A DNA stretch of 51,764 nucleotides from Desulfobacteraceae bacterium (GCA_014237365.1 JABZFQ010000263.1:1-51764); one strand, 5' to 3'; shown: positions 7,866 to 46,685, counted from the stretch's first letter. Numbers and translations: made by a program. The notes: a model not told the origin generated them from the sequence alone.

Positions 7866-8462
7866 TCATTTAATAATTTCTTCTGCCCTGGCCAGATCAT
7901 CAGGAGTATTAATATTAAAAAAAGAAATCAGATCAGGATCCTTTTCACGTAAAATATTTTCAGGAAGCTTTTTAACTCTTACCTTTTTAAAGAACTGTTT
8001 AATCTCAAGCTCTTTTTGAATCAGATTATTTTCAATTGGCTTAAGACATCTTTTTGAATATACCGCACAAAGCGGTTCCATCCCATTTAAAGTTTCCGGT
8101 ATAATAACGTCAACTCCCGTTTCTATACTATTAATAACAGTTTCAACCAACTCCTTTTTCAGGAATGGTATATCGCATGCCGTAATAAATGTATAAAAAT
8201 TATTTGAAAAAAAAAGTCCTGCATGTATTCCTGTTAAAGAACTTCTAAACGGGAATATATCAGACACAATATGTAAATCCCATTCAAGATATTTAAGCGG
8301 GTCATTGGCAACCAGGATAATCTCATCAAAAAGGGAATCAAATATTTCATATGTTCTGTCCAGAATACGCTTTCCGCCAACACTTATAAATGCTTTATTC
8401 ATGCCCGAAAAACGCTTATTATGTCCGCCCGCCAATATCACTCCTGTACATGGAAATTTCAT
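7866..8462 (-). CDS. mobA: Molybdenum cofactor guanylyltransferase MobA
   Basis: 198 aa. The GVILAGGHNKRFSG motif indicates an NTP-transferase fold. Confidence 0.85.
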   Translation of the reverse strand: MKFPCTGVILAGGHNKRFSGMNKAFISVGGKRILDRTYEIFDSLFDEIILVANDPLKYLEWDLHIVSDIFPFRSSLTGIHAGLFFSNNFYTFITACDIPFLKKELVETVINSIETGVDVIIPETLNGMEPLCAVYSKRCLKPIENNLIQKELEIKQFFKKVRVKKLPENILREKDPDLISFFNINTPDDLARAEEIIK

Positions 8463-11778: not shown

Positions 11779-14652
11779 ATGCAACTATTCCAAAAAAGTT
11801 CCATCAAAGACAAGATAACATTGTTGATGGTTTTTACAAGCGTCGTTGTTTTGACGATTGCCACAATGTCTTTTATGCTCTTCCAGGTTGTCAGCATATC
11901 CAGGGCTTCTCTGCAAGAGCTTTCCACTTTGGCAAAAACCATTGGAATTAATAGCAGAGCGCCTCTTACCTTTAATGACCGCACATCGGCAATAGAAACG
12001 CTATCTGCCTTGAGCGCTGTGCCTGACGTAACTACAGCCACTATCTTTACTCCCGATGGAAGTCCGTTTGCCTGTTACAAAAGAGCCGGTAAGCAGGAAA
12101 AGCCTTTGTCTGAAAAGGATAACTCTATTGAAGCAAATTTTTCCAGAGTAAAAATAGAGGCAGATGAAGGTATGTTTGAGGAATTCCCTCTATTTGATAG
12201 CCACTTTGATGTATTTGAAGATATCCATTTGGACGGTGAAATAATTGGGGTGGTGTGGATTGAAAAAGATATGTCGTATATTTATAAGAGCCTTGAAGCT
12301 TATGCGATCATTGCTGTTTCAGCTCTTCTGTTTACGACCTTGATCGCTTCTTTGCTTTCCCTGAAACTTCAGCCGATCATTTCACGGCCCATCATTGGCC
12401 TGGCCAAGACCATGAAAAGTGTCTCCAGCGAAAAGAATTATTCTATCCGGGCGGTCAAGGAGACTGAGGACGAACTTGGCACCCTTATTGACGGATTTAA
12501 TGAAATGCTCAAACAAATTCAGTTTCGGGACAATGAGCTGGAAGAACACCGGGCAAATCTCAAAAATCAGGTAGCTCTTCGGACAAAGGAGCTTTCTATA
12601 GCCAACACCAAACTACAAGATACAGTCAAGGTACTTCAACAGGCCAAAGAAGCCGCAGAAGCGGCCAGCCGGGCCAAAAGCGAGTTTCTGGCCACCATGA
12701 GTCACGAAATACGCACACCCATGAACGGGATGCTGGGCATGACCGAGTTATTGCTCGGCACAAAGCTTTCCGGCAGGCAGCGCGGGTTCGCACAAACCAT
12801 CCAGCGTTCCGGTGACTCCTTGCTGAGGATCATTAATGATATTCTTGACTTTTCCAAGATTGAAGCCGGTAAGCTGATGATTGATACCCATAATTTCAAC
12901 CTGCGGGACATGATAGAGGAAACAGCGGCAATGCTGGCAGAACGGGCGCACATTAAGGGATTGGAACTGGCCACTGTACTGCCTGTTGACCTGCCGGTGG
13001 CGCTATCAGGTGACTCGTCTCGCCTGCGGCAGATACTCGTAAACCTGCTCGGCAATGCAATCAAGTTCACCGACAGAGGCGAGGTTGTGATACGTGTGGA
13101 AATGCTTGATCAGACCAAAGATAAGATTCGCTTGCGTTTCGAGGTTGCAGATACCGGTATTGGCATCACACCGGAGATCCAGGCACGGATTTTTGATGCC
13201 TTTTCCCAGGCAGATGGATCCACTACCCGCGAGTACGGCGGCACTGGCCTGGGTCTAGCCATCTCCCGCAGGCTGGTGAAGCTGATGGGTGGCAAGATGG
13301 GCGTTAAAAGTGAACCAGGCAGGGGTTCTGTCTTCTGGTTCACGATTAGCTTTAAACGCCGGATCGCAAAAAAACATAACGGCCTGCATCCAGTAGAAGA
13401 CCTTCGCGGAATGCGCATTTTGATCGTGGACGACAACGCGACCAACCGAGAGATCCTGAAAAACCAGGTGATTGCCTGGGGAATGCAGCACGGCATCGCT
13501 GAAAATGGCGCTCAGGCCATTGAGATGCTGCGCAATGCTGCTTTAAAGGGCGAGGCATACGATATAGCCCTGCTTGATTGGCACATGCCTGAGATGGGCG
13601 GTATTGAGCTTGCGCACAGGCTGCGTTCAGATTCGCACATTCCTGAAATGCATCTAATAATGCTCAGCTCCGCTGCTTTTGATAATGAAGAAGCAGCAAG
13701 AGCAACTGACGCTGGTGTCCATCGTTACCTGAACAAACCGGTATGTCAGTCCGAGCTCTATGATTGCCTGATAAATACTATGAGCACACCGGGCGCTGGC
13801 AATCTGCAAACAGACGATGCGCAAACAATGGAAGTCGGAGCTGTATTTGACGCACACATCCTGCTTGCCGAAGATAACCTGATGAACCAGGAAGTAGCAC
13901 TGAATATGTTGGAACTGATGGGCTGCCAGGTTAACCTAGTAGAAAACGGGCAGGAGGCAGTAGAGGCAGCCGCAAAAATCGTCTTTGATCTGATCTTGAT
14001 GGACTATCATATGCCGGTGATGAACGGATTGACAGCAACAGATAGAATCCGAAAGCAGGAACAGGCTGGCAGCAATAGCCAACGTGTTCCCATTATTGCG
14101 CTCACAGCAGATGTACAAAAAGGTATGCAGGAGCAGTGTCTGGCTGTGGGCATGGATGACTTTTTGAGCAAGCCTTTTACCCAGGATCAGCTACAGGCAG
14201 TATTATCGCTGTGGCTGGATCAGCATGAGGAATCACCTGATCCAAAGGAAATAGTCAGATCAATTGCACCGGATGAACAAAAAGAAACAGAACCATTGCT
14301 GGAACAGGAAACCCTGAACAGGATCCGTGCACTTCAGCGGCCTGGCAAGCCCAATGTTCTGGGCAAAATCATCAATTTTTACCTGGAAAACTCACCCGGG
14401 TTGATAAAGACCGTGCGCAAGTCTGTGGAACAAGGAGATGGCGCTGCCCTTTGCGAAGCAGCCCACAGCCTGAAGTCAAGCAGTGCCAACTTAGGCGCAG
14501 TCAGCATGGCAGACGTGTGCAAGAAACTGGAAGAAATGGGGCGAGAGGAACGTATAGACGCGGCAAAAGCGCTGATTGGCCGCATTGAATCAGAATATAA
14601 ATTGGCCAGTGCAACGTTGGCTGACGAGTTGGGGAGAATATCTGATGCGTAA
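11779..14652 (+). CDS. Hybrid sensor histidine kinase: N-terminal CHASE8-like sensor, HAMP, HisKA, HATPase, two REC domains, Hpt
   Basis: H-box [12 protein letters not shown] boxes ([22 protein letters not shown]). Two receiver segments (ILIVDDN..., ILLAEDN...DYHMP). C-terminal Hpt motif ([13 protein letters not shown]). Confidence 0.9.
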
Positions 14653-25821: not shown

Positions 25822-25830
25822 CTCCCCCTA

Positions 25831-25914
25831 TAATCCCTAATCCCTAATCCCTAATCCCCTAAATCCCTAAATCCCTAATCCCTGCCCTTAATCTGCCCTT
25901 AATCTGCCCTTACT
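25831..25914. repeat. Tandem repeat block: (TAATCCC)4, (TAAATCCC)2, TAATCCC, then (CTGCCCTTAAT)3
   Basis: Read directly from the sequence. On the minus (sense) strand it is (GGGATTA)n with at least 8 G3 tracts. The last 11-mer overlaps the rlpA stop. Confidence 0.9.
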
Positions 25915-26665
25915 CTGCAACAATAAATGCATCATTAAATCCGTTGTCATTAAGATATTTTTCATACTCTGCTGCCTGTTCAAGATTTGAGCATTCCCCA
26001 AGCCGTACTCTGTAGTAGATCGCATCACCGCCGTCATAAGTTATTATGTGAGCGTTTCTGTATTGTTGAGCAAGTTTTTCCCTGAACCTTTCAGCATTTT
26101 GCCGATCGCGAAATGCGCCGACCTGAAATGTAAAATTTCCTGCATAATAGTTCACAGGAACATAAGTCCGGCGTTTATCGGTTTTGGGTTCAGATTCTCC
26201 GGCAACACCAAGAGCCACGATTTTGACCTTTGCCGTACCAGTCTCCACTATGCCTATTTTTTTTGCCGCCGCATAGGAAAGATCAATTATTCTGCCGCGG
26301 ACAAAGGGCCCACGGTCATTGATTCTGACCACGATTTTTTTATTGTTATGTAGATTGTGCAGTTTTACATATGTCCCAATCGGCAGAGTTTTATGCGCGG
26401 CAGAAATGGCATACATATCATAAATTTCACCGTTGGCGGTTTTTCTTCCATGAAATTTTTTGCCATACCAGGATGCCTTTCCAACCTGCACGAAATCCTT
26501 TGCGTCATGCAGCGGCTGATACCACTTGCCCATTACATTGTAAGGCCTGAATGTCGGGGAAATTTTTGATTGAACAGGAGGTGATTTTACCGTGGCACAT
26601 CCGTGAAATAAAAAAAGGAGAAGCACGAAAACAGCAAGGAAAGTAACGGAAGCTTTTAAGGCCAT
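25910..26665 (-). CDS. rlpA: Septal ring lytic transglycosylase RlpA family lipoprotein (DPBB + SPOR)
   Basis: Lipobox LFHGC, DPBB motif ASWYGKKFHGRKTANGE...RINDRGPF, C-terminal SPOR (FQVGAFRDRQNAERF). ATG at 26665 preferred over TTG at 26686, which overlaps lon. Confidence 0.85.
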   Translation of the reverse strand: MALKASVTFLAVFVLLLFLFHGCATVKSPPVQSKISPTFRPYNVMGKWYQPLHDAKDFVQVGKASWYGKKFHGRKTANGEIYDMYAISAAHKTLPIGTYVKLHNLHNNKKIVVRINDRGPFVRGRIIDLSYAAAKKIGIVETGTAKVKIVALGVAGESEPKTDKRRTYVPVNYYAGNFTFQVGAFRDRQNAERFREKLAQQYRNAHIITYDGGDAIYYRVRLGECSNLEQAAEYEKYLNDNGFNDAFIVAE

Positions 26666-32714: not shown

Positions 32715-32778
32715 GGGCGCATAATGCCGGCAAGATATAAGATCTCACCCCACCGATACGATGGTAGAAGGAGATATT

Positions 32779-33024
32779 TTGAGAGTTAAAATTACAGCCT
32801 TAACCGAATCACCTGCTCCTATCCCGTTTAATTACAATTATGCCCTTCACTCCGCCATCTATGGTCTCATAGAAAAATCATCAGGCGAGTATTCCAGATA
32901 CCTTCATGATAAAGGCTTTATTAATGAAACAGTAAAAAGGCGATTCAAATTATTTACCTTTTCAAAGCTCTTTTTTACTATTTGGATAATGCCTGTCTTT
33001 TGGGTTAAAGTAATCCAAGGCTAA
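32779..33024 (+). pseudogene. cas6: Truncated cas6 paralog (N-terminal ~65 aa)
   Basis: LRVKITALTESPAPIPFNYNYALHSAIYGLIEKSSGEYSRYLHDKGFINETVKRRFKLFTFSKL aligns with the N-terminus of the intact Cas6 at 38379. It has the same AGGAG-5nt-TTG start context. Homology is lost after FTFSKL. Confidence 0.75.
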
Positions 33025-33100: not shown

Positions 33101-33679
33101 ATGTATTTTGTTAATTATCGAGGGCCGTTTGGATTTATTAAACCTTGGACCGCAGTGAGAGATAGTGAAACTTTTAGCCAACAGTTTTTAACACCTTCGA
33201 TAGTGGCAGGTATTGAAAGGAAACTGTTTCCCGATCTTTTATCTGAGCCATATGACTTGTATATAATTAAAAGGCACAGGTTGTCTTACAAACAAATTTC
33301 TCATCAGCAAGAACAAATCCAGCCCAGGGGATGGAATAAAAAAAACAACTGCTTTTACAGGCCATATTCGATAATAGTTAGGGGTGTTCTTATAGAGCCT
33401 GATTTGTATCTTGGATTTGACAATGAAAAAGATGCTATACATGCTGCAAAGCAACATATATGCGTTTGCAGGAATGAAGATATTTTATTTCCCAATGAAT
33501 CAATAATTAAAATTTCTGAGGAAGACTTTGATACTCAGGAGGATATTTTTAATGGTTTTGAATTAATATTTGAACAAAACGAACAGGCCTTTTTATTAGG
33601 ATATAACCGTTTTGATGATAATAAACCTATGTATGGATGGCTTAAAATCATCGGCAACCCCGTAAAATATATATGTTGA
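33101..33679 (+). CDS. cas5: Cas5 family protein
   Basis: The N-terminus YRGPFGFIKPWTAVRDSETFSQQFLTPSIVAGIERKLF resembles the Cas5 (I-C-like) glycine/aromatic plus TPSxxxGI motif. 192 aa from ATG 33101. Overlaps the cas3 start. Confidence 0.65.
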   Translation: MYFVNYRGPFGFIKPWTAVRDSETFSQQFLTPSIVAGIERKLFPDLLSEPYDLYIIKRHRLSYKQISHQQEQIQPRGWNKKNNCFYRPYSIIVRGVLIEPDLYLGFDNEKDAIHAAKQHICVCRNEDILFPNESIIKISEEDFDTQEDIFNGFELIFEQNEQAFLLGYNRFDDNKPMYGWLKIIGNPVKYIC

Positions 33680-35841
33680 TTATGGACATTTGTCATCACA
33701 TAAAAGCAAAAGGAGCTCCTGAGTTCACAACCTTATATGATCATCTTTATCATGTTAGATTGGCAATTGAAAAATTTGCTGAATGTTTGGATTTTGATGT
33801 TGAAATTGCAAAAATAGGGGCTGTTCTCCATGATATTGGAAAAGCAAGTCCAATTTTTCAAGAAAGACTTGTATCCAAATATAGGACTGGTCAGTCAACA
33901 TTCCGCCATGAAATTGCTTCATGCTTTTTTATTTCTCTAATCAAAGAGAAACACCAACCTCAGCTAATTGAAATGGTAATTGCTCATCACAAATCAATTG
34001 AAGGGGATAAAAAACTGAAGGGGATACTTGATCTTGAAGAAAATGAAGGTGATATTTTTGAATCCCACATAAAAAACTGGGATATTTGGAAACCGGATGC
34101 CCTGAAAATACTCTCTGCCTTTGGTATTAAAACCAGAGATATTTCTTATGACGAAGCTCATGATAATTATCTTAAAGTGTTAGACTATTGCGAGAAAAGA
34201 GTTGAGGATTATGGTTATTCAAGATGGCGTGGGCTACTTATGTCTGCGGATTATTTTGCTTCTGCCCTGTCTGAATCCACAAAGAAGTATTTGAAAAATA
34301 CATTTAAAAAACCTGTCTTGAATTTTTATAATAGAAAATCAGGATTTTATCCCTTGTCGCTGAAAAAAGCTATATCTGAAAAACCACACACAATTGTTGT
34401 TGCATGTACCGGTGCAGGAAAAACAGACTATCTTTTCAGGAGATGCAAGGGACGAGTATTTTACACACTTCCGTTTCAGGCATCAATTAATGCAATGTAT
34501 CAACGGGTTAAAAATGAGTTATTACCTTCAAATCCAGACCTGGATATTCGATTGCTTCATTCTTCTTCAAAAATAGCAGTTAATGATGAATCACAAGAAG
34601 ACATCGTTTTACAACGGCTCATTGGCTCCAGTGTCAAAATTCTAACTCCCTATCAATTAGCTTCTATCATATTCGGCACAAGGGGCTTTGAATTTCAAAT
34701 TGAAGATATCAAAGGTTGTGATGTCATTCTTGATGAAATTCATACTTATACAGGTGTTTCAAAGGCAATAGCTCTGAAAATTGTGGAAGCGCTGAATTAT
34801 TTTGGCTGTCGTATCCATATTGGCACAGCTACCATGCCTTCTTCATTATATGAAAAAATTATAACATTGCTGGGGAAAAATTCTATTGAGCAGGTTTTTT
34901 TGGATAAAACAGAGCTTGAAAAATTTGATCGTCATAAACTTTTTAAGATCAATTCATGGGAGGATTCAGACCAAATAATTGCTGATGCTGTCAAAAAAAA
35001 ACAAAAAGTATTGCTTATTTGTAACCGTGTAAAATCAGCTCAAAATGTTTTAATTAGAGCAAAGAACCTATTTCCTGATATTCCATCCCTTCTTATTCAC
35101 AGCAGATTTAAACGCGGAGACAGGTATGAAAAAGAAAAGAAACTTTTAGGCGTTGATAAAAATGGACACCCAACAGGTGAATTTAACACTTCATTGGATG
35201 CTTGTATCGTGGTCTCCACACAGGTTGTTGAAGTCAGCCTGGATATCAGTTTCGATCTTATGATTACGGAAACAGCCCCTATTGATTCCTTAATTCAACG
35301 TTTTGGAAGGGTGAACAGAAAAAGATCATCATCTACTATTGGCGTTTATAAGCCAATATATTTAATCGCGCCTCCAGAAGATAAAAAAAAAGCCGCTCCT
35401 TATGATTTGGAAATATTGAAAAATAGTTTTGAAGTCCTGGAACATAATAGCATTCTCCACGAATCTGATTATCAAAAAAAGATCGATCATGTTTTTCCTG
35501 CAATATCCAGTTTAGACATAGAAACTCATACAGCATTTAAAGGAGATGGCAAATGGAATATTGAAGCGCTCACTCACAGGGACAACTCTATATTGCTCAA
35601 TCTGCTTGAAATTGACAGCGTAAACTGCATTATTGAATCTGACTGTGAAAAGTACAAAGATGCAAACTATAAGGAACAAACCCTGATAGAAATACCAGTA
35701 AGATATTATTCTATTAAAGACTTCTCCCAGTTGAATTGTGGCAGTGACCCATTTGTTATACCAGATCAAGGATACTCTGATGAAATGGGGTTGGAAATCG
35801 ACAAGGCTAAATTACATCAAACAGACTTAAATTTTATTTGA
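33673..35841 (+). CDS. cas3: Cas3 HD nuclease-helicase fusion
   Basis: HD motifs (HLYHV, LHDIGK, FRHE, AHHKS). Helicase motifs ACTGAGKTD, VILDEIH, QRFGRVNRK. Confidence 0.9.
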   Translation: MLIMDICHHIKAKGAPEFTTLYDHLYHVRLAIEKFAECLDFDVEIAKIGAVLHDIGKASPIFQERLVSKYRTGQSTFRHEIASCFFISLIKEKHQPQLIEMVIAHHKSIEGDKKLKGILDLEENEGDIFESHIKNWDIWKPDALKILSAFGIKTRDISYDEAHDNYLKVLDYCEKRVEDYGYSRWRGLLMSADYFASALSESTKKYLKNTFKKPVLNFYNRKSGFYPLSLKKAISEKPHTIVVACTGAGKTDYLFRRCKGRVFYTLPFQASINAMYQRVKNELLPSNPDLDIRLLHSSSKIAVNDESQEDIVLQRLIGSSVKILTPYQLASIIFGTRGFEFQIEDIKGCDVILDEIHTYTGVSKAIALKIVEALNYFGCRIHIGTATMPSSLYEKIITLLGKNSIEQVFLDKTELEKFDRHKLFKINSWEDSDQIIADAVKKKQKVLLICNRVKSAQNVLIRAKNLFPDIPSLLIHSRFKRGDRYEKEKKLLGVDKNGHPTGEFNTSLDACIVVSTQVVEVSLDISFDLMITETAPIDSLIQRFGRVNRKRSSSTIGVYKPIYLIAPPEDKKKAAPYDLEILKNSFEVLEHNSILHESDYQKKIDHVFPAISSLDIETHTAFKGDGKWNIEALTHRDNSILLNLLEIDSVNCIIESDCEKYKDANYKEQTLIEIPVRYYSIKDFSQLNCGSDPFVIPDQGYSDEMGLEIDKAKLHQTDLNFI

Positions 35842-35853
35842 AAAGATATTATT

Positions 35854-37251
35854 ATGATCTCAATAAATGTTGGACGCATATTTTTAAAAGCTTTTAATGA
35901 AAAGAATAATAAATCATATTCCTCCAAGGAATTTTTTGAAAAAATCTTTTTTGACCTTTTTTTTAATCATTCCAAATATATGATCTGGCCCACAAACTCG
36001 CCTTTTGTACAGATGAAAAAAGGCCAAAAAATACATCTTTTAAGCGAAGAAGAAAGACATGATAAGCTGAATGAATTTTTCGTAAAGGCAAAAACAGAAA
36101 CACCTGATTCTAGTTTTGCTATTGGATTTCCTGCTTCAGAATTAAAAGAGTTTGCAACAACATCAGGGCTTGTAAGCGACCTGGAAATTCCTGCTGATGA
36201 ATCTGATATCTATTACTCATGGATCGGATCTGGTTTAGGGCTTGGAGTCTCAGGCGGGGTGTGTATTTTCTTTACTGACCCTGAAATTTTGCTAAAAATT
36301 TTTGAAGGTTGGTATGTTTATCGACATTTCTTGAATGACGAGAGTTTAGATAAACTTGCCCCCAATAAAATAAACAGTTGGAATGGACAATGGTTAAATT
36401 ATGCTTACAGCAAAAAATATAGAGAAAATTTTGATTTTGCAAGTTTGACCAATCAACAAGTCTTTATGCAGGAAAAAAGCGGGAGTGTTATAATTGAAAC
36501 GATTAAATGGAGTAAATTATTTTTCAATATTTCTAGACAATTTTCTGATCAAACATTAATGGGGTATGTTTACAGCTTAGGACAGACAAATAAAACACTG
36601 GGTTTCTTACCATTCCATTTTAAGCAGGCACAAAAGATTAAACATTTTTACAAACTTCTTTTTGGAGAAAACAACGTAATTAAGGATAGCGCTGCATATG
36701 AGGATATATATGGTGCTCATATAAAAAGGGCTTGTGAATTAGGAGTAATAGGACTCCATGCATTACAGCCGGAAGGCTTAAAACAATATTTTGCAGAAGG
36801 GAAAAAACCTGACTTCAAAAAACCAAACATTACGCCAAAAAAGGGGGAAGATGAAAATACATATAAGGTCAGGGAAGAAAAGGCATCTTTAAAGGATAAG
36901 GAGAAAGTTATTTTATTTAGAACCTATAAAACATGGTTGGTTGCTATGATTACAAAAAACAAAGAAGAAATGATTGATTATACAAAAGACGTTGCAATCG
37001 CTCTACATTCATATAGGGCAAAAGCTACAAAGACTGTCGCAAAAAATCTTATTGAAAAGGAACTGCTTGTTGCAAAATCCAAAAAGAAATTTATAGATGC
37101 CCTGGTGGAAATCGTGAAAGATACCCCAACAGAGTATCTGGAGACCTTTAAAGAACTGAAAAATCGAGTTCACCTTATGACATCGGAGGACTTCGGATAT
37201 TTTGTTGTTCTTCTCAGATTTGATTATGCTTATGAAGAAAGAAATATTTAA
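35854..37251 (+). CDS. Candidate Cascade large subunit (Cas8-like), family not recognised
   Basis: Assigned by position between cas3 and cas7, by size (465 aa), and by a Lys-rich helical C-terminal ~100 aa. I cannot match any motif to a named Cas8 family. Confidence 0.45.
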   Translation: MISINVGRIFLKAFNEKNNKSYSSKEFFEKIFFDLFFNHSKYMIWPTNSPFVQMKKGQKIHLLSEEERHDKLNEFFVKAKTETPDSSFAIGFPASELKEFATTSGLVSDLEIPADESDIYYSWIGSGLGLGVSGGVCIFFTDPEILLKIFEGWYVYRHFLNDESLDKLAPNKINSWNGQWLNYAYSKKYRENFDFASLTNQQVFMQEKSGSVIIETIKWSKLFFNISRQFSDQTLMGYVYSLGQTNKTLGFLPFHFKQAQKIKHFYKLLFGENNVIKDSAAYEDIYGAHIKRACELGVIGLHALQPEGLKQYFAEGKKPDFKKPNITPKKGEDENTYKVREEKASLKDKEKVILFRTYKTWLVAMITKNKEEMIDYTKDVAIALHSYRAKATKTVAKNLIEKELLVAKSKKKFIDALVEIVKDTPTEYLETFKELKNRVHLMTSEDFGYFVVLLRFDYAYEERNI

Positions 37252-37272
37252 CCAATGCGTTCAGGAGAGACT

Positions 37273-38331
37273 ATGCATACTATTTATATTAGAACTTTAA
37301 AAAAAGCAGAACACACTGTTTTTTGTGTTGCAAATGGACAGAAAACCTATTTTGATCCTCAATTTAACAGATTAGTACCATACTCCAGCGGGCAACAAAT
37401 AAAACGCTCAATTATTGACAGACTATCAACAGAATTAAATGAGATTCCAGCCCCTGTAACATTTCTGTTTGATGTGACTAAAAAAAAGGAAATTACAGAA
37501 GGTGAAGTTTTCGGCACATGTGACCCTTCTAATTTTGACCAGTTGCTTGGTGGCTGGATGAAAGCCATAAAAGGCGGAAAAGAAAAAACTATAAAACGAA
37601 GAAGTCCTTTTTCCATATCTGCAATGAGAGCGCTGCATCCATTACTTGCAGGTATCAATAAAGAGGACATTACTTTTGATAGAAGTGGGCGATCAAATAA
37701 TAAAGTTATCGTAAGAGATCCTGAAGGAAATTACCTTTCTGAAGATGATATCAGAAGTCTGCTTGAGGATAAGGATAGAAGTCTGGTTCGTAAATGGATA
37801 CCAGACCACAGGACAGTTACTGGTTTATTCGTTCAGGATATTGCAATTGATTTAAGACGTTTGTTTTGTATCAGTTTAAATATTTATGAGCCGGAAATAA
37901 ACCAGCCTACTGAAAAAAAATTAAGAGAAAATGGTTGGATTGAAGCAAAAAATATTTTCGGAGATTGCCTGGTGGCACCTCCAAAAACAAGAGAAAAGCT
38001 TATTCCTGCAATTTCCAAAGCAATTATTAACTGGCAGATAACCTCAAATCAATCCAGAACATTCAGTCTCATGGAAACTCTTGCAGTTGCAGTAAGTGAT
38101 AATGCTAATAAAATTGCAAGCAGTATCCGGGGAAAATTAAGTGAAGAAAATGAAAATAGAGCTGTCCCTGTAATAGAAGAAAATTTTGACGGGGTTGATA
38201 TCTTTATCACTCTTACTGCAGGAGGCTATGTCCTCACAAAGTCAGAAAAAGCTGACGCTTTAGAATTAGCAGAACAAAATATTATAAACAAAATAAATGC
38301 CTTTGATTATGAAAACCAATTGAATGGTTAG
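37273..38331 (+). CDS. cas7: Cas7 family (Cascade backbone) protein
   Basis: PYSSGQQIKRSIIDRL and RRSPFSISAMRALHP resemble Cas7 RRM-core motifs. Start at ATG 37273 with AGGAG 5 nt upstream. Confidence 0.65.
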   Translation: MHTIYIRTLKKAEHTVFCVANGQKTYFDPQFNRLVPYSSGQQIKRSIIDRLSTELNEIPAPVTFLFDVTKKKEITEGEVFGTCDPSNFDQLLGGWMKAIKGGKEKTIKRRSPFSISAMRALHPLLAGINKEDITFDRSGRSNNKVIVRDPEGNYLSEDDIRSLLEDKDRSLVRKWIPDHRTVTGLFVQDIAIDLRRLFCISLNIYEPEINQPTEKKLRENGWIEAKNIFGDCLVAPPKTREKLIPAISKAIINWQITSNQSRTFSLMETLAVAVSDNANKIASSIRGKLSEENENRAVPVIEENFDGVDIFITLTAGGYVLTKSEKADALELAEQNIINKINAFDYENQLNG

Positions 38332-38378
38332 TTTTAAATTTAAAATATTAAATACATGATTTATTATGAGGACATATT

Positions 38379-39176
38379 TTGCGTATTATAATAACTGCTA
38401 CAAGTGAACAGCCATCTTTTTTCCCATACAATTATCAGTACGCGGTACATTCAGCTATATACTCTCTAATGAATGAGTCTTCGGCTGAATATTCAGAATT
38501 TTTACATGATAATGGTTATATAAAAGATGGAATTAATAAAAAATTCAAATTTTTCACCTTCTCGAAACTTAAATTTTTTCCAAAAAAAAGAGATAGAAAA
38601 GGTTTTTATAATGTGAAAAAGATTCAGTTTGTATTTACTTCTTCTATGGATGAAAGCCTCAAACATTTAATATTAGGCATTTTTTCCAATCAAAAAATTA
38701 AATTAATATTAAATGGGCAAAAATGTGTTTTTACTATAGTTAATGTAGATATACAACCGGAACCAATCTTTAGCAATCGTGAAAAATTTATTTGTCTCTC
38801 ACCAATAGCTGTTACAACAATAAAGATCGACGAAAATGGGAAACGGAAGCAGCATTTCCTGAATTATATGATCCCAGAAGAAAGAGATCGTTTTGTTGAT
38901 AATCTTAAAAAAAATCTGATCAGGAAGTATGAAACGATTAATAATATTAAATATCAAAATTTAAACGATCACTTTAACTTTAATTTCGATATTTATTACA
39001 TAACAAAACGAAAAGGTAATATTTCAAAGTTAATGGAGTTTAAAAATAGAATTAAAATAAAAGCTATGGAGGCTCCTTTCAGCATTGAAGCTGATTCGGA
39101 ATTAATAAAGCTCGGTTACGAATGTGGCTGGGGTGAAAAAAATAGCGCTGGTTTTGGTTGTGTTGAACAAATTTAA
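38379..39176 (+). CDS. cas6: Cas6 crRNA endoribonuclease
   Basis: TTG start after GAGGA. The N-terminal PYNYQYAVHSAIY motif and the C-terminal Gly-rich loop GWGEKNSAGFGCV are typical of Cas6. Confidence 0.8.
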   Translation: MRIIITATSEQPSFFPYNYQYAVHSAIYSLMNESSAEYSEFLHDNGYIKDGINKKFKFFTFSKLKFFPKKRDRKGFYNVKKIQFVFTSSMDESLKHLILGIFSNQKIKLILNGQKCVFTIVNVDIQPEPIFSNREKFICLSPIAVTTIKIDENGKRKQHFLNYMIPEERDRFVDNLKKNLIRKYETINNIKYQNLNDHFNFNFDIYYITKRKGNISKLMEFKNRIKIKAMEAPFSIEADSELIKLGYECGWGEKNSAGFGCVEQI

Positions 39177-39730
39177 ATATCTTGGCCTGAATATAAAAAT
39201 TTGTTTTTTGATCAACAATAAATATTTTTTTGATCAATCAATATCAATTTAATTATATGATTGCAAAAAACAAATACGTATTCAATTCCCTTTCGACAAA
39301 ACAAAGCCACCCTTTTTGTTAAAGGTAAAATATAACAAAAGGTAACAATTATTATGGAAAGAATTATTAAAAAAATATAAATCAAGAGCAAAGAGATTTT
39401 TTAAAGGCTCTTGCTGATAAAGAAATTGAAATATTTACATTTTCAGACACAGAACGAAAAACAGGGGAATTATCCATCCTTATTCTGATATTTTATATAT
39501 TTTATCAAGCCATTTTGTTTTATTAGCAATTGTTAAATTTGGCAGCCAGAGCCTGTAAGCTCTGTTCTATTGGCGGGATGAGATAATTCCGTATTCTTGT
39601 TTGGAGACAAGTTTTGTTCGTTGATTTTAAGGAAGCATTTGACAACACTATCAGCAATTTTGAGGGTTAATTGTCCGATATGTTTTAGTTTTGTCTTAAC
39701 GTGTGATTGGCCGGAGGGAGAGAATTAATT

Positions 39731-40279
39731 ATGGAAAATGAAGTAAAACAACAAGAGCAGATAAAACTGCCACAGGAGTTTCAGTCTCTTATCGCCGGTT
39801 TTTTTCCTAACACAAAATATTTTGACAGCCGGTTTGATCTTTTACAGGTTCAAATTGATGAATCAAGAAGAAACCAGGAACAGATCAAGGATCAGCTTAG
39901 GGATTTTAAGGGCGATACTGATAAGCGCTTTGAGCAGGCCAAAGATCAGCTTAAGGATTTTAAGGGCGATGCTGATAAGCGCTTTGAGCAGGTGGATAAG
40001 CATTTTGAGCAGGTGGATAAGCGTTTTGAGCAGGTGGATAAGCGTTTTGAGCAGATGGATAAGCGTTTTGAGCAGGTGGATAAGCGTTTTGAGCAGGTGG
40101 ATCACAGGTTTCAGCGGCTTGAAGACAAAATAGACAATCTCATTGAACGTATTGATGTTAAGGTTGATAGCGGCTTAAAAGAAAACCGGAATCTGACTGT
40201 AAGACTTTTTACCTTTGCCCTCTCTTTTTCTCTTGTTGCTGTAGTTGGGATGTTTGGAAAACTTTTTGGGTTGTTTTAG
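39731..40279 (+). CDS. Tail-anchored coiled-coil protein with DKRFEQV heptad tandem repeats
   Basis: Two 18-aa repeats (KDQL[RK]DFKGD[TA]DKRFEQ[AV]). Six to seven DKRFEQV heptads. C-terminal hydrophobic helix LFTFALSFSLVAVVGMFGKLFGLF. Confidence 0.7.
   Translation: MENEVKQQEQIKLPQEFQSLIAGFFPNTKYFDSRFDLLQVQIDESRRNQEQIKDQLRDFKGDTDKRFEQAKDQLKDFKGDADKRFEQVDKHFEQVDKRFEQVDKRFEQMDKRFEQVDKRFEQVDHRFQRLEDKIDNLIERIDVKVDSGLKENRNLTVRLFTFALSFSLVAVVGMFGKLFGLF
39887..40120 (+). repeat. In-frame tandem repeats: 2 x 54 bp then 6-7 x 21 bp
   Basis: 21-bp units GATAAGCGTTTTGAGCAGGTG start at 39974, 39995, 40016, 40037, 40058 and 40079, with a degenerate unit at 40100. Confidence 0.9.
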
Positions 40280-40306
40280 GCGCTGGTAGGAAAAAATTAT
40301 TAGTTA

Positions 40307-40419
40307 GGAACGTGGACGAAATAACTTCCCCAAGTAGGCGCACAGATTTGGGTCGAATTTGTTTGATCTCAGATCACAAAAGTTGATGGAATAGCTTACC
40401 TATTTCAATATTTTTGGGA
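40307..40419 (+). mobile_element. MITE-A copy 10, truncated after ~113 bp
   Basis: TTA then GGAACGTGGACGAAATAACTTCCCCAAGTAGGCGCACAG... through ...CAATATTTTTGGGA. Confidence 0.85.
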
Positions 40420-40486
40420 GTCTTGTTCATTGATTTTAAGGAAGCATTTGACAACACTACCCGTATTTTTGAAGGAAATAGCTGAT

Positions 40487-41710
40487 ATGGACAAAATAGA
40501 ACTTTTAAAACTTATTAACAAAGGCGAATCCAGCTTTGTGGAATTCAAAGCAGATACACCGGATATTAAAGCGGAAACAATTGGGGAGTATGTTGTCTGT
40601 TTTGCAAATTCAAAGGGCGGAAAAATTCTGCTCGGCGTCGAAGATGACGGAACAATAACAGGACTGAAAGGCAGGTTTTCCGAATACGGTAAATGGATAT
40701 CAGACGCTGTTCAGGGCTGGGCACATCCAAATATTATTGTTGATTATGAGGAGGTGCCTGTAGAAGAAGATTTGCGGGTTGCCGTGATTACTGTGCCGAT
40801 GAGTGTCGCCAAGCCGTATTCCAAACGCAAGGGGAAGGATGCAAAGGAGCGTTACTATATTCGCGATGTCACCAGTTGTCGGGAAACAGATAGAGAAGAA
40901 CTAAGGCGTTTATTTCAAAGCTCAGGGATGATTCATTTTGAGGTGACGCCTGTGCCAAGGTCAAAACCGGAAGATTTGAATGAAACGCTGCTTGTGGAGT
41001 ATTTCAGGCGGGTCAGAGATATCGGTTATGACGATAAGCCAAAATGGCTTCGGCTTTTAATTGACAATCAGATACTTTCTGAAGAACTTGGTGCTGTTAA
41101 TTGTACTCTGGCAGGGCTTATTTTATTCGGCAAAAAGGATAGAGTTAAAAAATTAATTCCTCAAAGCGGTATTAGTGCTGTAGAATATGACTCTCCTGAT
41201 GCGGATGTGGCGGGTCGTTTTCGCAAAGAAATCAATGGACCCCTGATTTCGTTGCGTGAAAACTCGGGAGTTATTGCTGAAGAAGGCATAATTGACCAGG
41301 CTGTAAATTTCGTTTTAAGGGTACGGTCAAAAGAAAAAATTGAAGGTACAAGACGCGTGACTGAATATGCTTATCCCCCTGAGGTTCTGCGTGAAGCCAT
41401 TGTTAATGCCGTTGCCCACAGAGATTATACCATCGGTGGAACAAATATCGGCCTTTGGCTCTATCCTGACCGGTTTGAAATCGATAGTCCGGGCAATCTT
41501 CCAAACACTATCACAATAGAACGGATGAAAAGCGGCGCCCGCTATCACCGCAATCAAACGATTGTTGATTACCTGCGCGACATGAATTTTATCGAAGGCA
41601 GTGGCAGGGGTGTATCACGCAAAATCATCCGCGGTATGATTGAGCATAATGGCAAAGAGCCGGACTTTGAGCTAAGGGGCGAAGCATTAAGAGTTACTTT
41701 ATATGCTTAA
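40487..41710 (+). CDS. AlbA_2 (Schlafen-type) plus HATPase_c_4 domain protein (RecG-like putative DNA-binding regulator)
   Basis: Start MDKIELLKLINKGESSFVEFK, ...CFANSKGGKILLGVEDDGTITG (AlbA_2 signature). C-terminal EAIVNAVAHRDY...EIDSPGNLP...RNQTIVDYL (HATPase_c_4-like). Confidence 0.7.
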   Translation: MDKIELLKLINKGESSFVEFKADTPDIKAETIGEYVVCFANSKGGKILLGVEDDGTITGLKGRFSEYGKWISDAVQGWAHPNIIVDYEEVPVEEDLRVAVITVPMSVAKPYSKRKGKDAKERYYIRDVTSCRETDREELRRLFQSSGMIHFEVTPVPRSKPEDLNETLLVEYFRRVRDIGYDDKPKWLRLLIDNQILSEELGAVNCTLAGLILFGKKDRVKKLIPQSGISAVEYDSPDADVAGRFRKEINGPLISLRENSGVIAEEGIIDQAVNFVLRVRSKEKIEGTRRVTEYAYPPEVLREAIVNAVAHRDYTIGGTNIGLWLYPDRFEIDSPGNLPNTITIERMKSGARYHRNQTIVDYLRDMNFIEGSGRGVSRKIIRGMIEHNGKEPDFELRGEALRVTLYA

Positions 41711-41717
41711 AAATATT

Positions 41718-41950
41718 GTAACCGTTCACGGTTGTTGGTTCACAGTTCACAGTTTTTTCAATGAACTATGCAATGATTGAAGCATTTGCCTGGTTCCCAT
41801 GCTCCTGCGTGGGAACCCTCGCAGTATGCATTCCCACGCAGGAGCTATGGGAACGAAAAAGAAGATTCCCTGCACAGCACAGGCTACGGGCAATGCGCTC
41901 GCTATTGCGGTTCAACCGTGAACCGATAACTGTAAACCGTGAACGGTTAC
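41718..41950. repeat. Composite palindromic element: heptamer-repeat outer arms plus an inner 22-bp inverted repeat
   Basis: Outer arms gtaaccgttcacggttgttggttcacagttcacagtt / ggttcaaccgtgaaccgataactgtaaaccgtgaacggttac. Inner TTCCCATGCTCCTGCGTGGGAA (41794-41815) faces TTCCCACGCAGGAGCTATGGGAA (41831-41853). Confidence 0.8.
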
Positions 41951-41973
41951 AAAATATTTATGGACATTAGGTT

Positions 41974-42468
41974 ATGCAAAACCTGAATTTTACCGGCACC
42001 CAGATAAACTACTATTTTGTATGTCATCGCAAACTCTGGCTGTTTACAAAAGATATAAGATTTGAGGACGAAAACGAATATGTGCAATTGGGGCGGCTCA
42101 TTGATGAAAATACCTATAAGCGGAATAAAAAGCAGATTGAGATCGGCAAAATTAAAATTGATTTCATTGATAACAATGGCGTGATCCATGAAATTAAAAA
42201 ATCGAATAAAATTGAAAAGGCCCATATTCACCAGGTGAAATATTACATCCTTACATTAAAGAGAATGGGAGTTGAAAATATCACAGGTGAAATTGATTAT
42301 CCAAAACTGAAGAAAAGGGAAACGGTATTGCTGACGCCTGAGGATGAAAAGGAATTCGAAAAGATTTTTTCAGATATTCGGGAAATTCTGGATAAACCAA
42401 AACCGCCTGCTATAATTAAAAAAACTATATGCAAGAAATGTGCTTACTTTGAATTCTGCTTTGCATAA
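41974..42468 (+). CDS. cas4: Cas4 (RecB-like exonuclease with Fe-S Cys cluster)
   Basis: 164 aa. N-terminal YYFVCHRKLW and C-terminal CKKCAYFEFC cysteines. DxK-type core (IDF...HEIKKS). Confidence 0.85.
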   Translation: MQNLNFTGTQINYYFVCHRKLWLFTKDIRFEDENEYVQLGRLIDENTYKRNKKQIEIGKIKIDFIDNNGVIHEIKKSNKIEKAHIHQVKYYILTLKRMGVENITGEIDYPKLKKRETVLLTPEDEKEFEKIFSDIREILDKPKPPAIIKKTICKKCAYFEFCFA

Positions 42469-42485
42469 CCTGTATAAGGAATAAC

Positions 42486-43475
42486 ATGAAACAATCTTTA
42501 TATCTTTTTTCAAATTGTACGATTAAAAGGAAAGACAACACCCTGATGTTTGATATCGACGGAACAAAAAAATTCCGTCCTGTTGAAGCGGTTTCTGATA
42601 TTTTTCTTTTTGGTGAACATACCCTTAATACAAAGTTGCTGAATTTTTTGGGACAGCAGAAAATTCCTGTTCACATATTTAATTATTACGGATTTTACTC
42701 TGGTTCTTTTTTCCCAAGAGAACAATATCTTTCGGGACATGTCACAATCAGCCAGGCAAAGCATTATCTTGATAAGAAAAAAAGAATGCTTTTAGCCTAT
42801 GAATTTTTGAATGCAGCAGCTTCAAACATTCTTACAAACCTGACATATTACAATAACAGAGGAAGGAATGTCGGTGAAAAGATTCTGCAGGTAAAAGAAT
42901 TGAAAAAATCATTAAAAGCAGCAGATTCAATCTCATATTTAATGGGCATCGAAGGAAATATCAGGGAGTTGTATTATTCTGCTTTTAACGAAATTGTTCA
43001 AAATAAAATCGAATTTGAAAAACGTGTTAAAAGACCTCCTGACAATTTTATCAATTCACTGATTTCCTTTGGTAATTCCCTTATTTACACATCAATTCTG
43101 TCTGAAATTTACAGAACCCAGCTTAATCCTACTGTCAGTTTTCTCCATGAACCAGGATACAGGCGTTATTCCCTCGCGCTTGATATATCGGAAATTTTCA
43201 AACCTATCATCCTTGACAGAATGATCTTCACCATGATCAATAAAAATGAGTTGACTGAAAAAGATACGGAAAAAGACCTTAACTACTGCTATTTGAAAGA
43301 TAAAGGCAGGAAGAACTTTTTAAGAAAATATGATGAAAGGCTGAAAACAACTGTTAAACATAAAAATCTTAATCGGCATGTTTCTTACAAAAGACTTATC
43401 CGGCTTGAGTGTTATAAAATCGTTAAACATATTATTGGTGAAGAAAAATACACAGGGTTTAAGATGTGGTGGTAA
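42486..43475 (+). CDS. cas1: Cas1 integrase
   Basis: 329 aa with a typical I-B-like Cas1 layout (two-domain, ...GIEGN...LNPTVSFLHEPG...SLALDISEIFKP). Confidence 0.9.
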   Translation: MKQSLYLFSNCTIKRKDNTLMFDIDGTKKFRPVEAVSDIFLFGEHTLNTKLLNFLGQQKIPVHIFNYYGFYSGSFFPREQYLSGHVTISQAKHYLDKKKRMLLAYEFLNAAASNILTNLTYYNNRGRNVGEKILQVKELKKSLKAADSISYLMGIEGNIRELYYSAFNEIVQNKIEFEKRVKRPPDNFINSLISFGNSLIYTSILSEIYRTQLNPTVSFLHEPGYRRYSLALDISEIFKPIILDRMIFTMINKNELTEKDTEKDLNYCYLKDKGRKNFLRKYDERLKTTVKHKNLNRHVSYKRLIRLECYKIVKHIIGEEKYTGFKMWW

Positions 43476-43477
43476 TC

Positions 43478-43759
43478 ATGTATGTGATCGCAATGTACGA
43501 CATAAATACGGAAACAAAGGCTGGCAGGAGGAGGTTAAGGCAAATTTTTAAATTAATGAAAAAATATCTTATCCGAATTCAGAATTCTGTCTTTGAAGGA
43601 GAAATTACCAAAGCCAAATTTGAAGAAATGAAGTTAAAAGTTAACGATCTTATTGATAATACTATTGATTCAGTTATATTTTTCAAAAGTCGTGACATTA
43701 AATGGATGGATAAAGACATATGCGGCTTTGAAAAAGATGATACTGATAACTTTTTATGA
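43478..43759 (+). CDS. cas2: Cas2
   Basis: MYVIAMYDI...RIQNSVFEGEIT ferredoxin-like Cas2 pattern. The tracked ORF begins at GTG 43466, overlapping the cas1 stop. Confidence 0.88.
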   Translation: MYVIAMYDINTETKAGRRRLRQIFKLMKKYLIRIQNSVFEGEITKAKFEEMKLKVNDLIDNTIDSVIFFKSRDIKWMDKDICGFEKDDTDNFL

Positions 43760-43889
43760 AATATCTGCTCTTTGACAATTTGTAAAAAAACCGTCAATCT
43801 CCCTATGATTTTACATCATTGCAGGTTGACGGAAAAAACAGTTTGATTTATTAATGTAACTTATTATTTTTATATTATTTATTGGATGG
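43760..43889 (+). promoter_or_regulatory. CRISPR leader (AT-rich)
   Basis: 130 bp between the cas2 stop and the first repeat. Contains the inverted repeat ccgtcaa...ttgacgg and an A/T-rich repeat-proximal stretch. The degenerate repeat is at the opposite end of the array. Confidence 0.65.
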
Positions 43890-46685
43890 CTTTTAATCAG
43901 ACCAGAATGGAATTGAAACGAAAATTAATTTCAAGACTAAGTTCATTTGGCATCCGCTTTTAATCAGACCAGAATGGAATTGAAACTATAGTTTGTGCGA
44001 GCTGGATGAGAAATCAAAAGTCTTTTAATCAGACCAGAATGGAATTGAAACAATTTTATTTTGTATTGTTTTTTTTGTACGGTTAACTTTTAATCAGACC
44101 AGAATGGAATTGAAACATAATCAAGTCGATGTTCAGGAAGGTCATGTTGCCCCTTTTAATCAGACCAGAATGGAATTGAAACCCGATATGACGAGAACAA
44201 AGAAGCATTACATAGCGACTTTTAATCAGACCAGAATGGAATTGAAACATCACACAAAAATACCAGCCTGCAATTCGATCCAGCTTTTAATCAGACCAGA
44301 ATGGAATTGAAACGGCGGAGAATCCTTCCGATCAAACTGGGGCGGGGATCTTTTAATCAGACCAGAATGGAATTGAAACAAAATATAGAGCCAGATATCT
44401 GTCTGAATTTAAACTCTTTTAATCAGACCAGAATGGAATTGAAACTGATTTATTGCCGGCCTCCATTTCTGCATTAAGCTCCTTTTAATCAGACCAGAAT
44501 GGAATTGAAACCTGGGAACGGCAAATAAGAACGCCGTACACAGAGCTCTTTTAATCAGACCAGAATGGAATTGAAACTTATCTGCATCATCTCGAATCCT
44601 ATTATGCTTTATGCTTTTAATCAGACCAGAATGGAATTGAAACTCTTGTGTCCCAGTGGAAAACTGCTGCTTCGCCTGTCTTTTAATCAGACCAGAATGG
44701 AATTGAAACGATGAATTTTTTTATATCCTGCTTTTCTTCTTCATCCTTTTAATCAGACCAGAATGGAATTGAAACCACGTTTAGCGGGGTATACAGGTAC
44801 AGACAGAACGTCTTTTAATCAGACCAGAATGGAATTGAAACGTGTTCGACTTCCCAGACTTGTTTCAGTTCAGTGTGCTTTTAATCAGACCAGAATGGAA
44901 TTGAAACTCGAGCTCCCTTTGTCCTCACGATTGGCGCTCCCACTTTTAATCAGACCAGAATGGAATTGAAACGCTGGCACTCCTTGCAGTCGCTCTCGAA
45001 GAGCGTGCCTTTTAATCAGACCAGAATGGAATTGAAACCGCTCACTGTAAAGATTTCCGACACTGTCAGCGTTGCTTTTAATCAGACCAGAATGGAATTG
45101 AAACTCGAGCTCAAAAATGGTAAAGGTGCCTGGACTCTGACTTTTAATCAGACCAGAATGGAATTGAAACTTGGTCCATTAATAATAGGCGTAGCTTTTT
45201 TAGCATCTTTTAATCAGACCAGAATGGAATTGAAACTCGAAAGCACCCCCTGACACAATCATTTCGCTAATTCTTTTAATCAGACCAGAATGGAATTGAA
45301 ACAAATGGTGCTCCCGTTCGAGCTTGATATCCCTGCCCCTTTTAATCAGACCAGAATGGAATTGAAACACCCATTTATTCTTTTCAGAAGATTCAGAAGA
45401 TAACTTTTAATCAGACCAGAATGGAATTGAAACAAACCCGCCAGCGCCGGCAAGGGAAAACAACAAACACTTTTAATCAGACCAGAATGGAATTGAAACA
45501 GAGATCGCTTCTGAGGGCTTTTCTTTCTTTTCGACTTTTAATCAGACCAGAATGGAATTGAAACTATCCCATGGCTTTTTCACTAACGACAAAGCCTGAC
45601 TTTTAATCAGACCAGAATGGAATTGAAACATCGCAAATGACGCAGCTATGATTATTTGCGCTCTCCTTTTAATCAGACCAGAATGGAATTGAAACAGGCT
45701 AAACGAAACACGGATCCAGTTTGGTTACGGCTTTTAATCAGACCAGAATGGAATTGAAACGCATTTCGACACCCCATGTCGGTTTTCTTTACACCTCCTT
45801 TTAATCAGACCAGAATGGAATTGAAACCGGCCTTGTTTTACGCAGGCTCTCGTTAGGAGCTCGCTTTTAATCAGACCAGAATGGAATTGAAACCCGTGAA
45901 AATGACGCTTTCCCCCTCCTCTGAGTACTCTTTTAATCAGACCAGAATGGAATTGAAACGTCGCTCGTAATAAGCCCGCTCGTCTGCACACCATTCTTTT
46001 AATCAGACCAGAATGGAATTGAAACTTTTTTGTCTCCTTTTTTAGGTTGTTTTTTATCTGCTTTTAATCAGACCAGAATGGAATTGAAACTAGCTGTGAG
46101 TTTATTGTAGCTGTTTTATTGAGCGCCTTTTAATCAGACCAGAATGGAATTGAAACCGACGACTCTATGAGCGACTAACAGATCGCAAATTACTTTTAAT
46201 CAGACCAGAATGGAATTGAAACCAAATTGTCAGCGAATTGTGGCTGATAATCATTAAACTTTTAATCAGACCAGAATGGAATTGAAACCGTTAAACCTAA
46301 CTGCCTGGTTTTAATGATGATCAGCTTTTAATCAGACCAGAATGGAATTGAAACAGCTCGGTCGCCTTGGATAGATCAAGTTGTGCCTGACTTTTAATCA
46401 GACCAGAATGGAATTGAAACAGGAACGCAAATAGTATAAAATCGAGGTATTTACCTTCTTTTAATCAGACCAGAATGGAATTGAAACTTAGCCCAAAGCT
46501 GAAAGTGGCTACAAGTGGAGGAGCTTTTAATCAGACCAGAATGGAATTGAAACAACCTTCTTCTGTGATCCTGAGATACCCTCGAACATCTTTTAATCAG
46601 ACCAGAATGGAATTGAAACCGGGGAACGACCTCGGCAGGTATTGGCGTTTGGACGCTTTTAATCAGGCCAGAATGGAAGAGCATA
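43890..46685 (+). CRISPR. CRISPR array: 43 repeats of 30 bp (CTTTTAATCAGACCAGAATGGAATTGAAAC), 42 spacers of 35-37 bp
   Basis: Each repeat start was located by hand (43890, 43957, 44022 ... 46590). The terminal repeat at 46656 is degenerate (CTTTTAATCAGGCCAGAATGGAAGAGCATA). The repeat ends in ATTGAAAC, the classical Cas6-generated 8-nt handle. Confidence 0.97.

Follow-up and report, generated by a model that had tools for sequence, protein, structure and literature searches.

Is the CRISPR-Cas (short palindromic repeats that are clustered and regularly interspaced, with their associated genes) locus at positions 33101-46685 of a 51,764-nucleotide (nt) stretch of DNA from a Desulfobacteraceae bacterium (GCA_014237365.1, JABZFQ010000263.1:1-51764; the whole stretch is called the window here) a new kind of type I system, or a known one in an unfamiliar gene order? 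An earlier note had read this region from the sequence alone as cas5-cas3-(a protein of 465 amino acids, aa)-cas7-cas6, followed by cas4-cas1-cas2 and an array of 30-bp repeats. The open reading frames (ORFs), every one on the + strand, and the array confirm these coordinates and this order. The note had further concluded that the effector genes fit no canonical subtype. In contrast, we find that the system is of a known kind, i.e. a subtype I-B member of the catalogued Cas8b6-type variant and not a new kind of system. We consider it very probable that the locus is a complete chromosomal I-B system of this variant, in which cas6 and the adaptation block have been exchanged within I-B.

The assignment is carried by the profiles of PADLOC-DB, which are derived from the Makarova cas set and labelled in that style (e.g. 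'CAS-I-B; effector_LS'). All five effector proteins match I-B-specific families of this collection over their full length, with expectation values (E) of 2e-56 to 1e-300. Cas5 matches PDLC01480 ('CAS-I-B effector_G5') at 3.3e-85 over profile positions 1-177 of 178, and its second match is the Cas5b profile PDLC02093 (4e-82, full profile length). As the matches of this protein in PADLOC-DB at E ≤ 1 are I-B Cas5 profiles only, the description of Cas5 as I-C-like finds no profile support, and the N-terminal motif on which it was based is not discriminating. Cas3 is encoded by a single ORF with the HD domain at residues 21-198 and the helicase core at 240-590; it matches Cas3b (PDLC02079) at 1.1e-300, the NCBIfam models TIGR01587 (cas3_core, 1e-58) and TIGR01596 (cas3_HD, 1.5e-18), and the Pfam families HD, DEAD and Cas3-like_C_2. 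Cas7 covers positions 1-347 of 347 of the Cas7b profile PDLC01493 ('CAS-I-B effector_G7') at 5.6e-179; the classical Cst2/DevR model TIGR02585 gives a weak, sub-threshold NCBIfam match (2e-6), and there is no Pfam match. For Cas6 we obtained TIGR01877 (5.5e-30, 105 bits at a cutoff of 58.65), Pfam Cas_Cas6_C and Cas6_I-A, and the Cas6b profile PDLC01782 at 2.1e-56, against 1.6e-13 for PDLC02101.

The adaptation module consists of separate cas4, cas1 and cas2 genes. Cas1 clears the NCBIfam Cas1b model TIGR03641 with 453.5 bits (cutoff 304.1), while the NCBIfam Cas1 models of I-C, I-D, I-E, I-G and Myxan all stay under their cutoffs; Cas4 and Cas2 are recognised by the corresponding Pfam families. 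The Cas5, Cas7 and Cas8 profiles of subtypes I-A, I-C and I-G in PADLOC-DB gave no match even at E ≤ 1. As to I-C, neither a Cas5c nor a Cas8c profile is matched at E ≤ 1 and an intact cas6 is present; as to I-A, cas3 is fused and not split, and neither a csa5 gene nor a match to a Cas8a profile was found. An I-A-like embedding of cas3, as had been proposed, is likewise without profile support. The I-B features that we do find are the Cas8b large subunit, the Cas5 and Cas7 types, the fused Cas3, the stand-alone Cas6, the adaptation module and the repeat, and the profiles thereby uphold the earlier description of a type I locus with an I-B-like repeat, Cas6 and adaptation module. Only the canonical order cas6-cas8b-cas7-cas5-cas3 is absent, the window having cas5-cas3-cas8b-cas7-cas6; gene order is not a criterion that defines subtype I-B. 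Pfam and NCBIfam returned zero matches for Cas5 and the 465-aa protein, which explains why these two could not be placed at first reading. This silence is misleading when taken alone, and it was PADLOC-DB that resolved it.

The identity of the large subunit is central to the question. The 465-aa protein, which is 100% identical to HF982_11135, matches PDLC01511 ('Cas8b; CAS-I-B; effector_LS') at 2.6e-162, the match being split into two stretches that cover it. This is its sole PADLOC match at E ≤ 1, and it has no detectable similarity to the other Cas8b profile families of PADLOC-DB at that threshold. A Bacteroides locus, L020, encodes at the cas8b6 position a 437-aa protein with which the 465-aa protein aligns from end to end (35% identity, E 4e-85); this Bacteroides protein matches the same single profile, at 1e-176. 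Based on this sequence comparison, i.e. the shared profile match and the end-to-end alignment, the 465-aa protein is a member of a Cas8b family that is already catalogued. This family is large and widespread: a 90%-clustered database contains at least 1669 of its members at E ≤ 1e-3, which fall into 349 clusters at 50% identity, and the named hosts, among them Desulfobacula, Ca. Desulfarcum, Labilibaculum, Marinilabiliaceae, Chloroherpeton, Prosthecochloris and Chlorobium, belong to the Desulfobacterota, Bacteroidota and Chlorobi. In public records almost every member is called a 'hypothetical protein'. Thus, the protein does go unrecognised by Pfam and NCBIfam, in line with its being left unassigned in the earlier note, but it does not found a new family.

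The unusual core order, too, is already documented as an I-B variant. In Bacteroides fragilis the I-B order is cas6, cas5, cas3, hypothetical, hypothetical, cas4, cas1, cas2, array (Tajkarimi & Wexler 2017, PMC5704556), and according to Makarova 2015, as relayed in the same paper, the B. fragilis hypotheticals are classed as cas5, cas7 and cas8b6. Compared with the canonical I-B of C. kluyveri, in the words of the authors, 'the gene order is different' (PMC5704556), just as the effector order of the window had been called unlike textbook I-B, a description that holds. We used the published B. fragilis leader to fetch loci from human gut metagenomes. The loci retrieved are truncated variants or are cut before cas8b; the B. 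fragilis Cas7 obtained in this way is 58% identical to the Cas7 of the window over the full length, and a truncated Cas5 remnant is 50% identical to its Cas5. A Cas7 with 82% identity to that of B. fragilis led to the full Bacteroides locus L020. Its neighbourhood is the published one (RmuC, Met-aminopeptidase, cas genes, PseudoU synthase, TrmA, PPDK), as are its gene sizes (cas5 188 aa, cas1 338 aa). With the exception of Cas6, the L020 effector proteins match the profiles found for the window, and the identities between the two loci are 54% for Cas5, 49% for Cas3, 35-39% for Cas8 and 57% for Cas7. Among the loci from the human gut metagenome, L009, L011, L013, L015 and L018 mostly have a truncated form described in PMC5704556, in which the 5' part of cas5 is fused to the 3' part of cas1 and followed by cas2; L018 differs in that cas7-cas4-cas1-cas2 are kept, with unrelated DNA beyond cas7.

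We then compared the window with eight further loci (L002, L003, L004, L005, L007, L020, L021 and L022). A contig scan with the 465-aa protein alone gave two close loci only, and the wider context comes from contigs encoding homologues. The core order cas5-cas3-cas8b-cas7 is kept in all eight, and the swapped-pair order is fixed across the whole Cas8b6-type variant. The position of cas6 divides the loci evenly. In L002 (a Thermodesulfobacteriota metagenome-assembled genome, whose contig stops inside cas1), L005 (Desulfobacula phenolica), L007 (Ca. Desulfarcum epimagneticum) and L021, cas6 follows cas7 as in the window; these Desulfobacterota loci have protein identities of 63-97% to the window and an identical or nearly identical repeat. 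In L003 (Chloroherpeton thalassium), L004 (Labilibaculum), L020 (Bacteroides) and L022, cas6 precedes cas5, giving cas6-cas5-cas3-cas8b-cas7(-cas4-cas1-cas2). Two of the latter loci have features of their own. L003 (CP001100.1, 6554-12483) consists of cas6-cas5-cas3-cas8b-cas7 alone, with no cas4, cas1, cas2 or array within 10 kb; just upstream lies a WYL-domain gene, and a tRNA synthetase gene follows directly. L004 carries, in the interval between cas7 and cas4 (12533-13150), a 205-aa ORF that matches nothing in Pfam or PADLOC, at the same position as cas6 in the lineage of the window.

The coordinates of all features are collected in the table below. The profile match of Cas5 begins at ATG 33101, the start chosen in the earlier note, and the likely start of cas2 is ATG 43478, which yields 93 aa as in the relatives. 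From cas5 through cas6 neighbouring genes overlap or lie 3-47 nt apart, and each of the eight cas ORFs is intact and spans its whole profile. Between cas6 and cas4 there is a gap of 2.8 kb with two unrelated genes, which the note had not mentioned, nor had it mentioned the cas6 5' pseudogene fragment just upstream of cas5. At 25825-25918, the window has intergenic short tandem repeats (TAATCCC x7 and CTGCCCTTAAT x3.4) flanked by genes for a HAD hydrolase and a lytic transglycosylase/SPOR protein.

Table. Features of the CRISPR-Cas locus and its left edge (window coordinates).
Feature	Position	Strand	Basis or remark
cas6 5' pseudogene fragment	32761..33024	+	87-aa ORF; Pfam, PADLOC, identity to intact cas6
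cas5 (I-B type), 192 aa from ATG 33101	33101..33679	+	ORF opens at TTG 33080
cas3, HD nuclease and SF2 helicase fused, 722 aa	33673..35841	+	PADLOC, NCBIfam, Pfam
cas8b large subunit (Cas8b6-type family), 465 aa	35854..37251	+	PADLOC PDLC01511
cas7 (I-B type), 358 aa	37255..38331	+	PADLOC PDLC01493
cas6 endoribonuclease (by homology), 265 aa	38379..39176	+	TIGR01877, Pfam, PADLOC PDLC01782
Inserted coiled-coil gene, 190 aa	39707..40279	+	Tandem repeats; low-complexity coiled-coil matches only
Inserted AlbA_2 (Schlafen-like)/HATPase_c_4 gene, putative DNA-binding, 407 aa from ATG 40487	40487..41710	+	TTG at 40430 opens ORF
cas4	41974..42468	+	Pfam Cas_Cas4 1.2e-58; TIGR00372 6.6e-24
cas1 (I-B type)	42486..43475	+	TIGR03641 Cas1b 4.1e-136
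cas2	43466..43759	+	Pfam CRISPR_Cas2 7.8e-22; TIGR01573 3.9e-12
AT-rich leader, 130 nt, cas2 to first repeat	43760..43889	+	Sequence read directly
CRISPR array, 43 repeats and 42 spacers	43890..46685	+	Repeat detection and direct reading

The array comprises 42 perfect copies of the 30-nt repeat CTTTTAATCAGACCAGAATGGAATTGAAAC and one degenerate terminal copy, separated by 42 spacers of 35-37 nt, all unique. As the degenerate copy lies at the far end of the array, the AT-rich stretch on the cas2 side is the leader end. The repeat ends in ATTGAAAC and is unstructured (folding z=0.03). The repeats of the relatives, 29-30 nt long and ending in GGAATTGAAAC, form one family common to all loci. No spacer has a self-target within the window. 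Taken together, the intact ORFs and the 42 identical repeats argue for a functional system. A decaying, non-functional remnant is an alternative. It is consistent with the cas6 pseudogene fragment at the edge of the locus, with the 2.8-kb insertion that parts cas6 from cas4 and with the truncated versions of the Cas8b6-type variant that are common in B. fragilis. However, eight intact genes, an array of identical repeats with only unique spacers, and the retention of the insertion in L002 and L007, where the genes around it are intact, make decay very improbable.

Why, then, does cas6 follow cas7 in the window? The upstream Cas6 of the cas6-first relatives matches PDLC02101 at about 1e-92 to 1e-100, whereas the downstream Cas6 of the window belongs to PDLC01782 and has a Cas6_I-A-type N-terminal domain; the two types are mutually only 24-34% identical. 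The identities of the other proteins are informative in L022, which has the cas6-first arrangement. Its effector proteins are closer to the window than to L020 (Cas8 60% against 42%, Cas7 69% against 59%), but its adaptation proteins are closer to L020 (Cas1 69% against 53% for the window, Cas4 65% against 44%, Cas2 67% against 45%). This incongruence between effector and adaptation identities, seen in pairwise comparisons among seven loci, indicates that cas6-cas4-cas1-cas2 was exchanged as a block within I-B, which is the simplest reading. A cas6 (PDLC01782)-cas4-cas1-cas2 block from another I-B lineage would have replaced the upstream cas6 (PDLC02101) and the adaptation genes in a Desulfobacterota sub-lineage, and this replacement would have put cas6 after cas7. 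Later, in the same sub-lineage, a truncated cas6 would have been left at the left edge and the AlbA_2/HATPase_c_4 gene inserted between cas6 and cas4; the coiled-coil gene would have been inserted as well, in the genome of the window alone. Such an exchange is ordinary modular shuffling. The mosaicism suspected in the earlier note is therefore real as far as modules are concerned, but according to the pairwise identities it lies within I-B and does not extend across I-A, I-B and I-C.

Alternatively, the ancestral upstream cas6 could have moved after cas7 by a simple transposition or inversion within the locus and no module exchange. The cas6 remnant of the window sits exactly where the relatives have their cas6, upstream of cas5, and the repeat family is identical in both cas6 arrangements, which speaks for such a move. 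Against this, the downstream Cas6 and the upstream remnant are both of the PDLC01782 type and not of the PDLC02101 type found in the cas6-first relatives, the identity patterns of Cas4, Cas1 and Cas2 conflict with those of the effector genes, and the remnant is present in the window and L002 only. We therefore regard a move within the locus as very improbable and keep to the exchange of the block.

The remnant itself has about 66 codons homologous to the Cas6 N-terminus (to about 32976) and then diverges until the stop. It matches the Pfam Cas6_I-A N-terminal domain at 5.6e-9 and the PADLOC Cas6b profile PDLC01782 at 5e-18, and is 52% identical to the N-terminus of the intact cas6. L002 alone shares it, with 90% identity, and it is absent from L005, L007 and L021. 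Since the DNA homology between the window and L002 begins at 32752, the fragment marks the left edge of a shared cassette. A second upstream cas locus as its source was ruled out, the upstream genes being housekeeping genes.

The two genes between cas6 and cas4 have different distributions. The product of the larger one matches Pfam PF04326 (AlbA_2, 1e-20) and PF13749 (HATPase_c_4, 9e-21), and its GC content is 0.43 compared with 0.31-0.35 in the flanks. L002 (96% nt identity) and L007 (84%) have the gene in the corresponding place; it is missing from L005 and L021. Its next-closest homologues (68-73% identity, L023 and L024) lie in unrelated contexts and not beside cas genes, which rules out a general CRISPR accessory; we treat the gene as an insertion and not as a cas gene. 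At the left edge of this insertion L002 carries a duplicated cas4 5' fragment (8298-8373, 88% identical to window 41951-42025), which suggests that the start of cas4 was duplicated as part of the insertion. The coiled-coil gene is present only in the window's copy of the locus and absent from L002 and L007. Its coiled-coil/TM product has a hydrophobic C-terminal segment, and the gene contains in-frame tandem repeats at 39886-40102 (21 nt x6 and 54 nt x2, 'DKRFEQV' units); it is not part of the CRISPR-Cas system.

By homology, from which we infer all steps of the mechanism, Cas6 would cut the unstructured 30-nt repeats to leave the 8-nt 5' handle AUUGAAAC on the CRISPR RNA (crRNA). Cas8b, several Cas7 subunits, Cas5 and the crRNA would form Cascade, with the helical C-terminal domain of Cas8b supplying the small-subunit (Cas11) function. 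Cascade would then bind double-stranded DNA flanked by a protospacer-adjacent motif (PAM) and recruit the HD-helicase Cas3 for degradation of the target, while Cas1, Cas2 and Cas4 would insert new spacers at the leader beside cas2.

To characterize the large subunit further we built an AlphaFold2 model based on 54 homologues, which is confident (predicted local distance difference test, pLDDT, 83; predicted template modelling score, pTM, 0.82). A Foldseek search of the Protein Data Bank (PDB) with this model returned nothing at E ≤ 0.001. The only CRISPR-related matches are the I-A Cascade chains 7tr6_D and 7tr6_E (~107 residues), which we take to be Cas11a; they align with the helical C-terminal ~100 residues and are weak (probability 0.6, E about 2-4, target TM-score 0.5). 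A Cas11-like C-terminus may be in keeping with the usual I-B case, in which the small-subunit function resides in the Cas8b C-terminus, although the evidence is weak. An internal start within cas8b that would give a separate Cas11 is not supported: Met365 is invariant, but it is preceded by no Shine-Dalgarno sequence in 9/9 loci and sits within a predicted helix. PDB sequence searches found nothing with the Cas8b profile, nor with single Cas7 or Cas5 sequences, and among solved structures there is no Cascade of the Cas8b6-type variant. There is a slim chance that the Cas8b6-type large subunit could use a structurally new mode of PAM recognition or Cas3 recruitment and that the AlbA_2/HATPase_c_4 gene could be a lineage-specific regulator or accessory.

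Several points weigh against our assignment and its functional reading. The label 'cas8b6' reaches the 465-aa protein via the syntenic Bacteroides locus and the shared profile PDLC01511, which PADLOC-DB names just 'Cas8b'. No sequence or fold relative of the N-terminal domain was detected among solved Cas8 structures, so that 'Cas8b' is a positional and profile label and not a demonstrated structural homology. The helical C-terminal domain is probably Cas11-like, judging from the weak Foldseek match. The block exchange is read from pairwise identities among seven loci, and the 2.8-kb insertion might uncouple the expression of the adaptation genes. No protospacer was matched when three spacers were compared with viral contigs and the whole array with phage genomes; the activity, the crRNA ends and the PAM are inferred.

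The first reading proposed a type I subtype that is new or mosaic, with features of I-A, I-B and I-C and an unrecognised large-subunit family. It can draw on the lack of Pfam and NCBIfam matches to Cas5 and the 465-aa protein and the sub-threshold result for Cas7, on the 'hypothetical protein' records of the homologues and on the unmatched N-terminal part of the large subunit. But with I-B-specific profiles matching all five effector proteins, no I-A or I-C Cas5, Cas7 or Cas8 match at E ≤ 1, a publication that already gives the unusual order for the I-B locus of B. fragilis with its cas8b6 (PMC5704556) and a 465-aa family that is large and spans three phyla, it is extremely improbable. The earlier note had itself agreed to give up novelty should the five proteins fall into one existing subtype with a documented variant of this order; this is essentially what we find, the published variant having cas6 before cas5.

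The value of the result is mainly practical, with little for discovery. It reveals an annotation gap: Pfam and NCBIfam overlook the Cas5 and Cas8b of a widespread I-B variant, and its Cas7 reaches only a sub-threshold NCBIfam match. As a consequence, what lies between cas3 and cas4 appears in genomes as 'hypothetical proteins', and the locus may be mistaken for something new. The locus is also an example of the exchange of cas6 and the adaptation block within one subtype.

One of the closest known systems is the cas8b6 I-B system of B. fragilis. It shares with the window the Cas5, Cas3b, Cas8b and Cas7b profile families, the core cas5-cas3-cas8b-cas7 followed by cas4-cas1-cas2 and an array, a repeat family (29-30 nt, with GGAATTGAAAC/T at the end) whose spacers measure about 36-37 nt, and the annotation of Cas5, Cas7 and Cas8 as hypothetical. 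The two differ in cas6, which comes first and is of the TM1814/PDLC02101 type in B. fragilis, whereas the window has an intact cas6 (PDLC01782) after cas7 and only a truncated fragment upstream. Moreover, the adaptation proteins are only 44-48% identical between the window and the B. fragilis type, the Cas8b of the window is 28 aa longer than its Bacteroides counterpart, and the upstream cas6 pseudogene and the two inserted genes set the window apart.

Canonical I-B systems, e.g. that of Clostridium kluyveri, have the order cas6-cas8b-cas7-cas5-cas3-cas4-cas1-cas2. The window shares with them the gene set, the fused HD-helicase Cas3, the separate cas4, cas1 and cas2 genes, a Cas1 of the Cas1b model, the lack of a separate cas11 and a 30-nt repeat ending in ATTGAAAC. 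What had been taken for an I-A-like arrangement is thus the canonical I-B order in which two pairs, cas8b-cas7 and cas5-cas3, have changed places and cas6 comes at the end.

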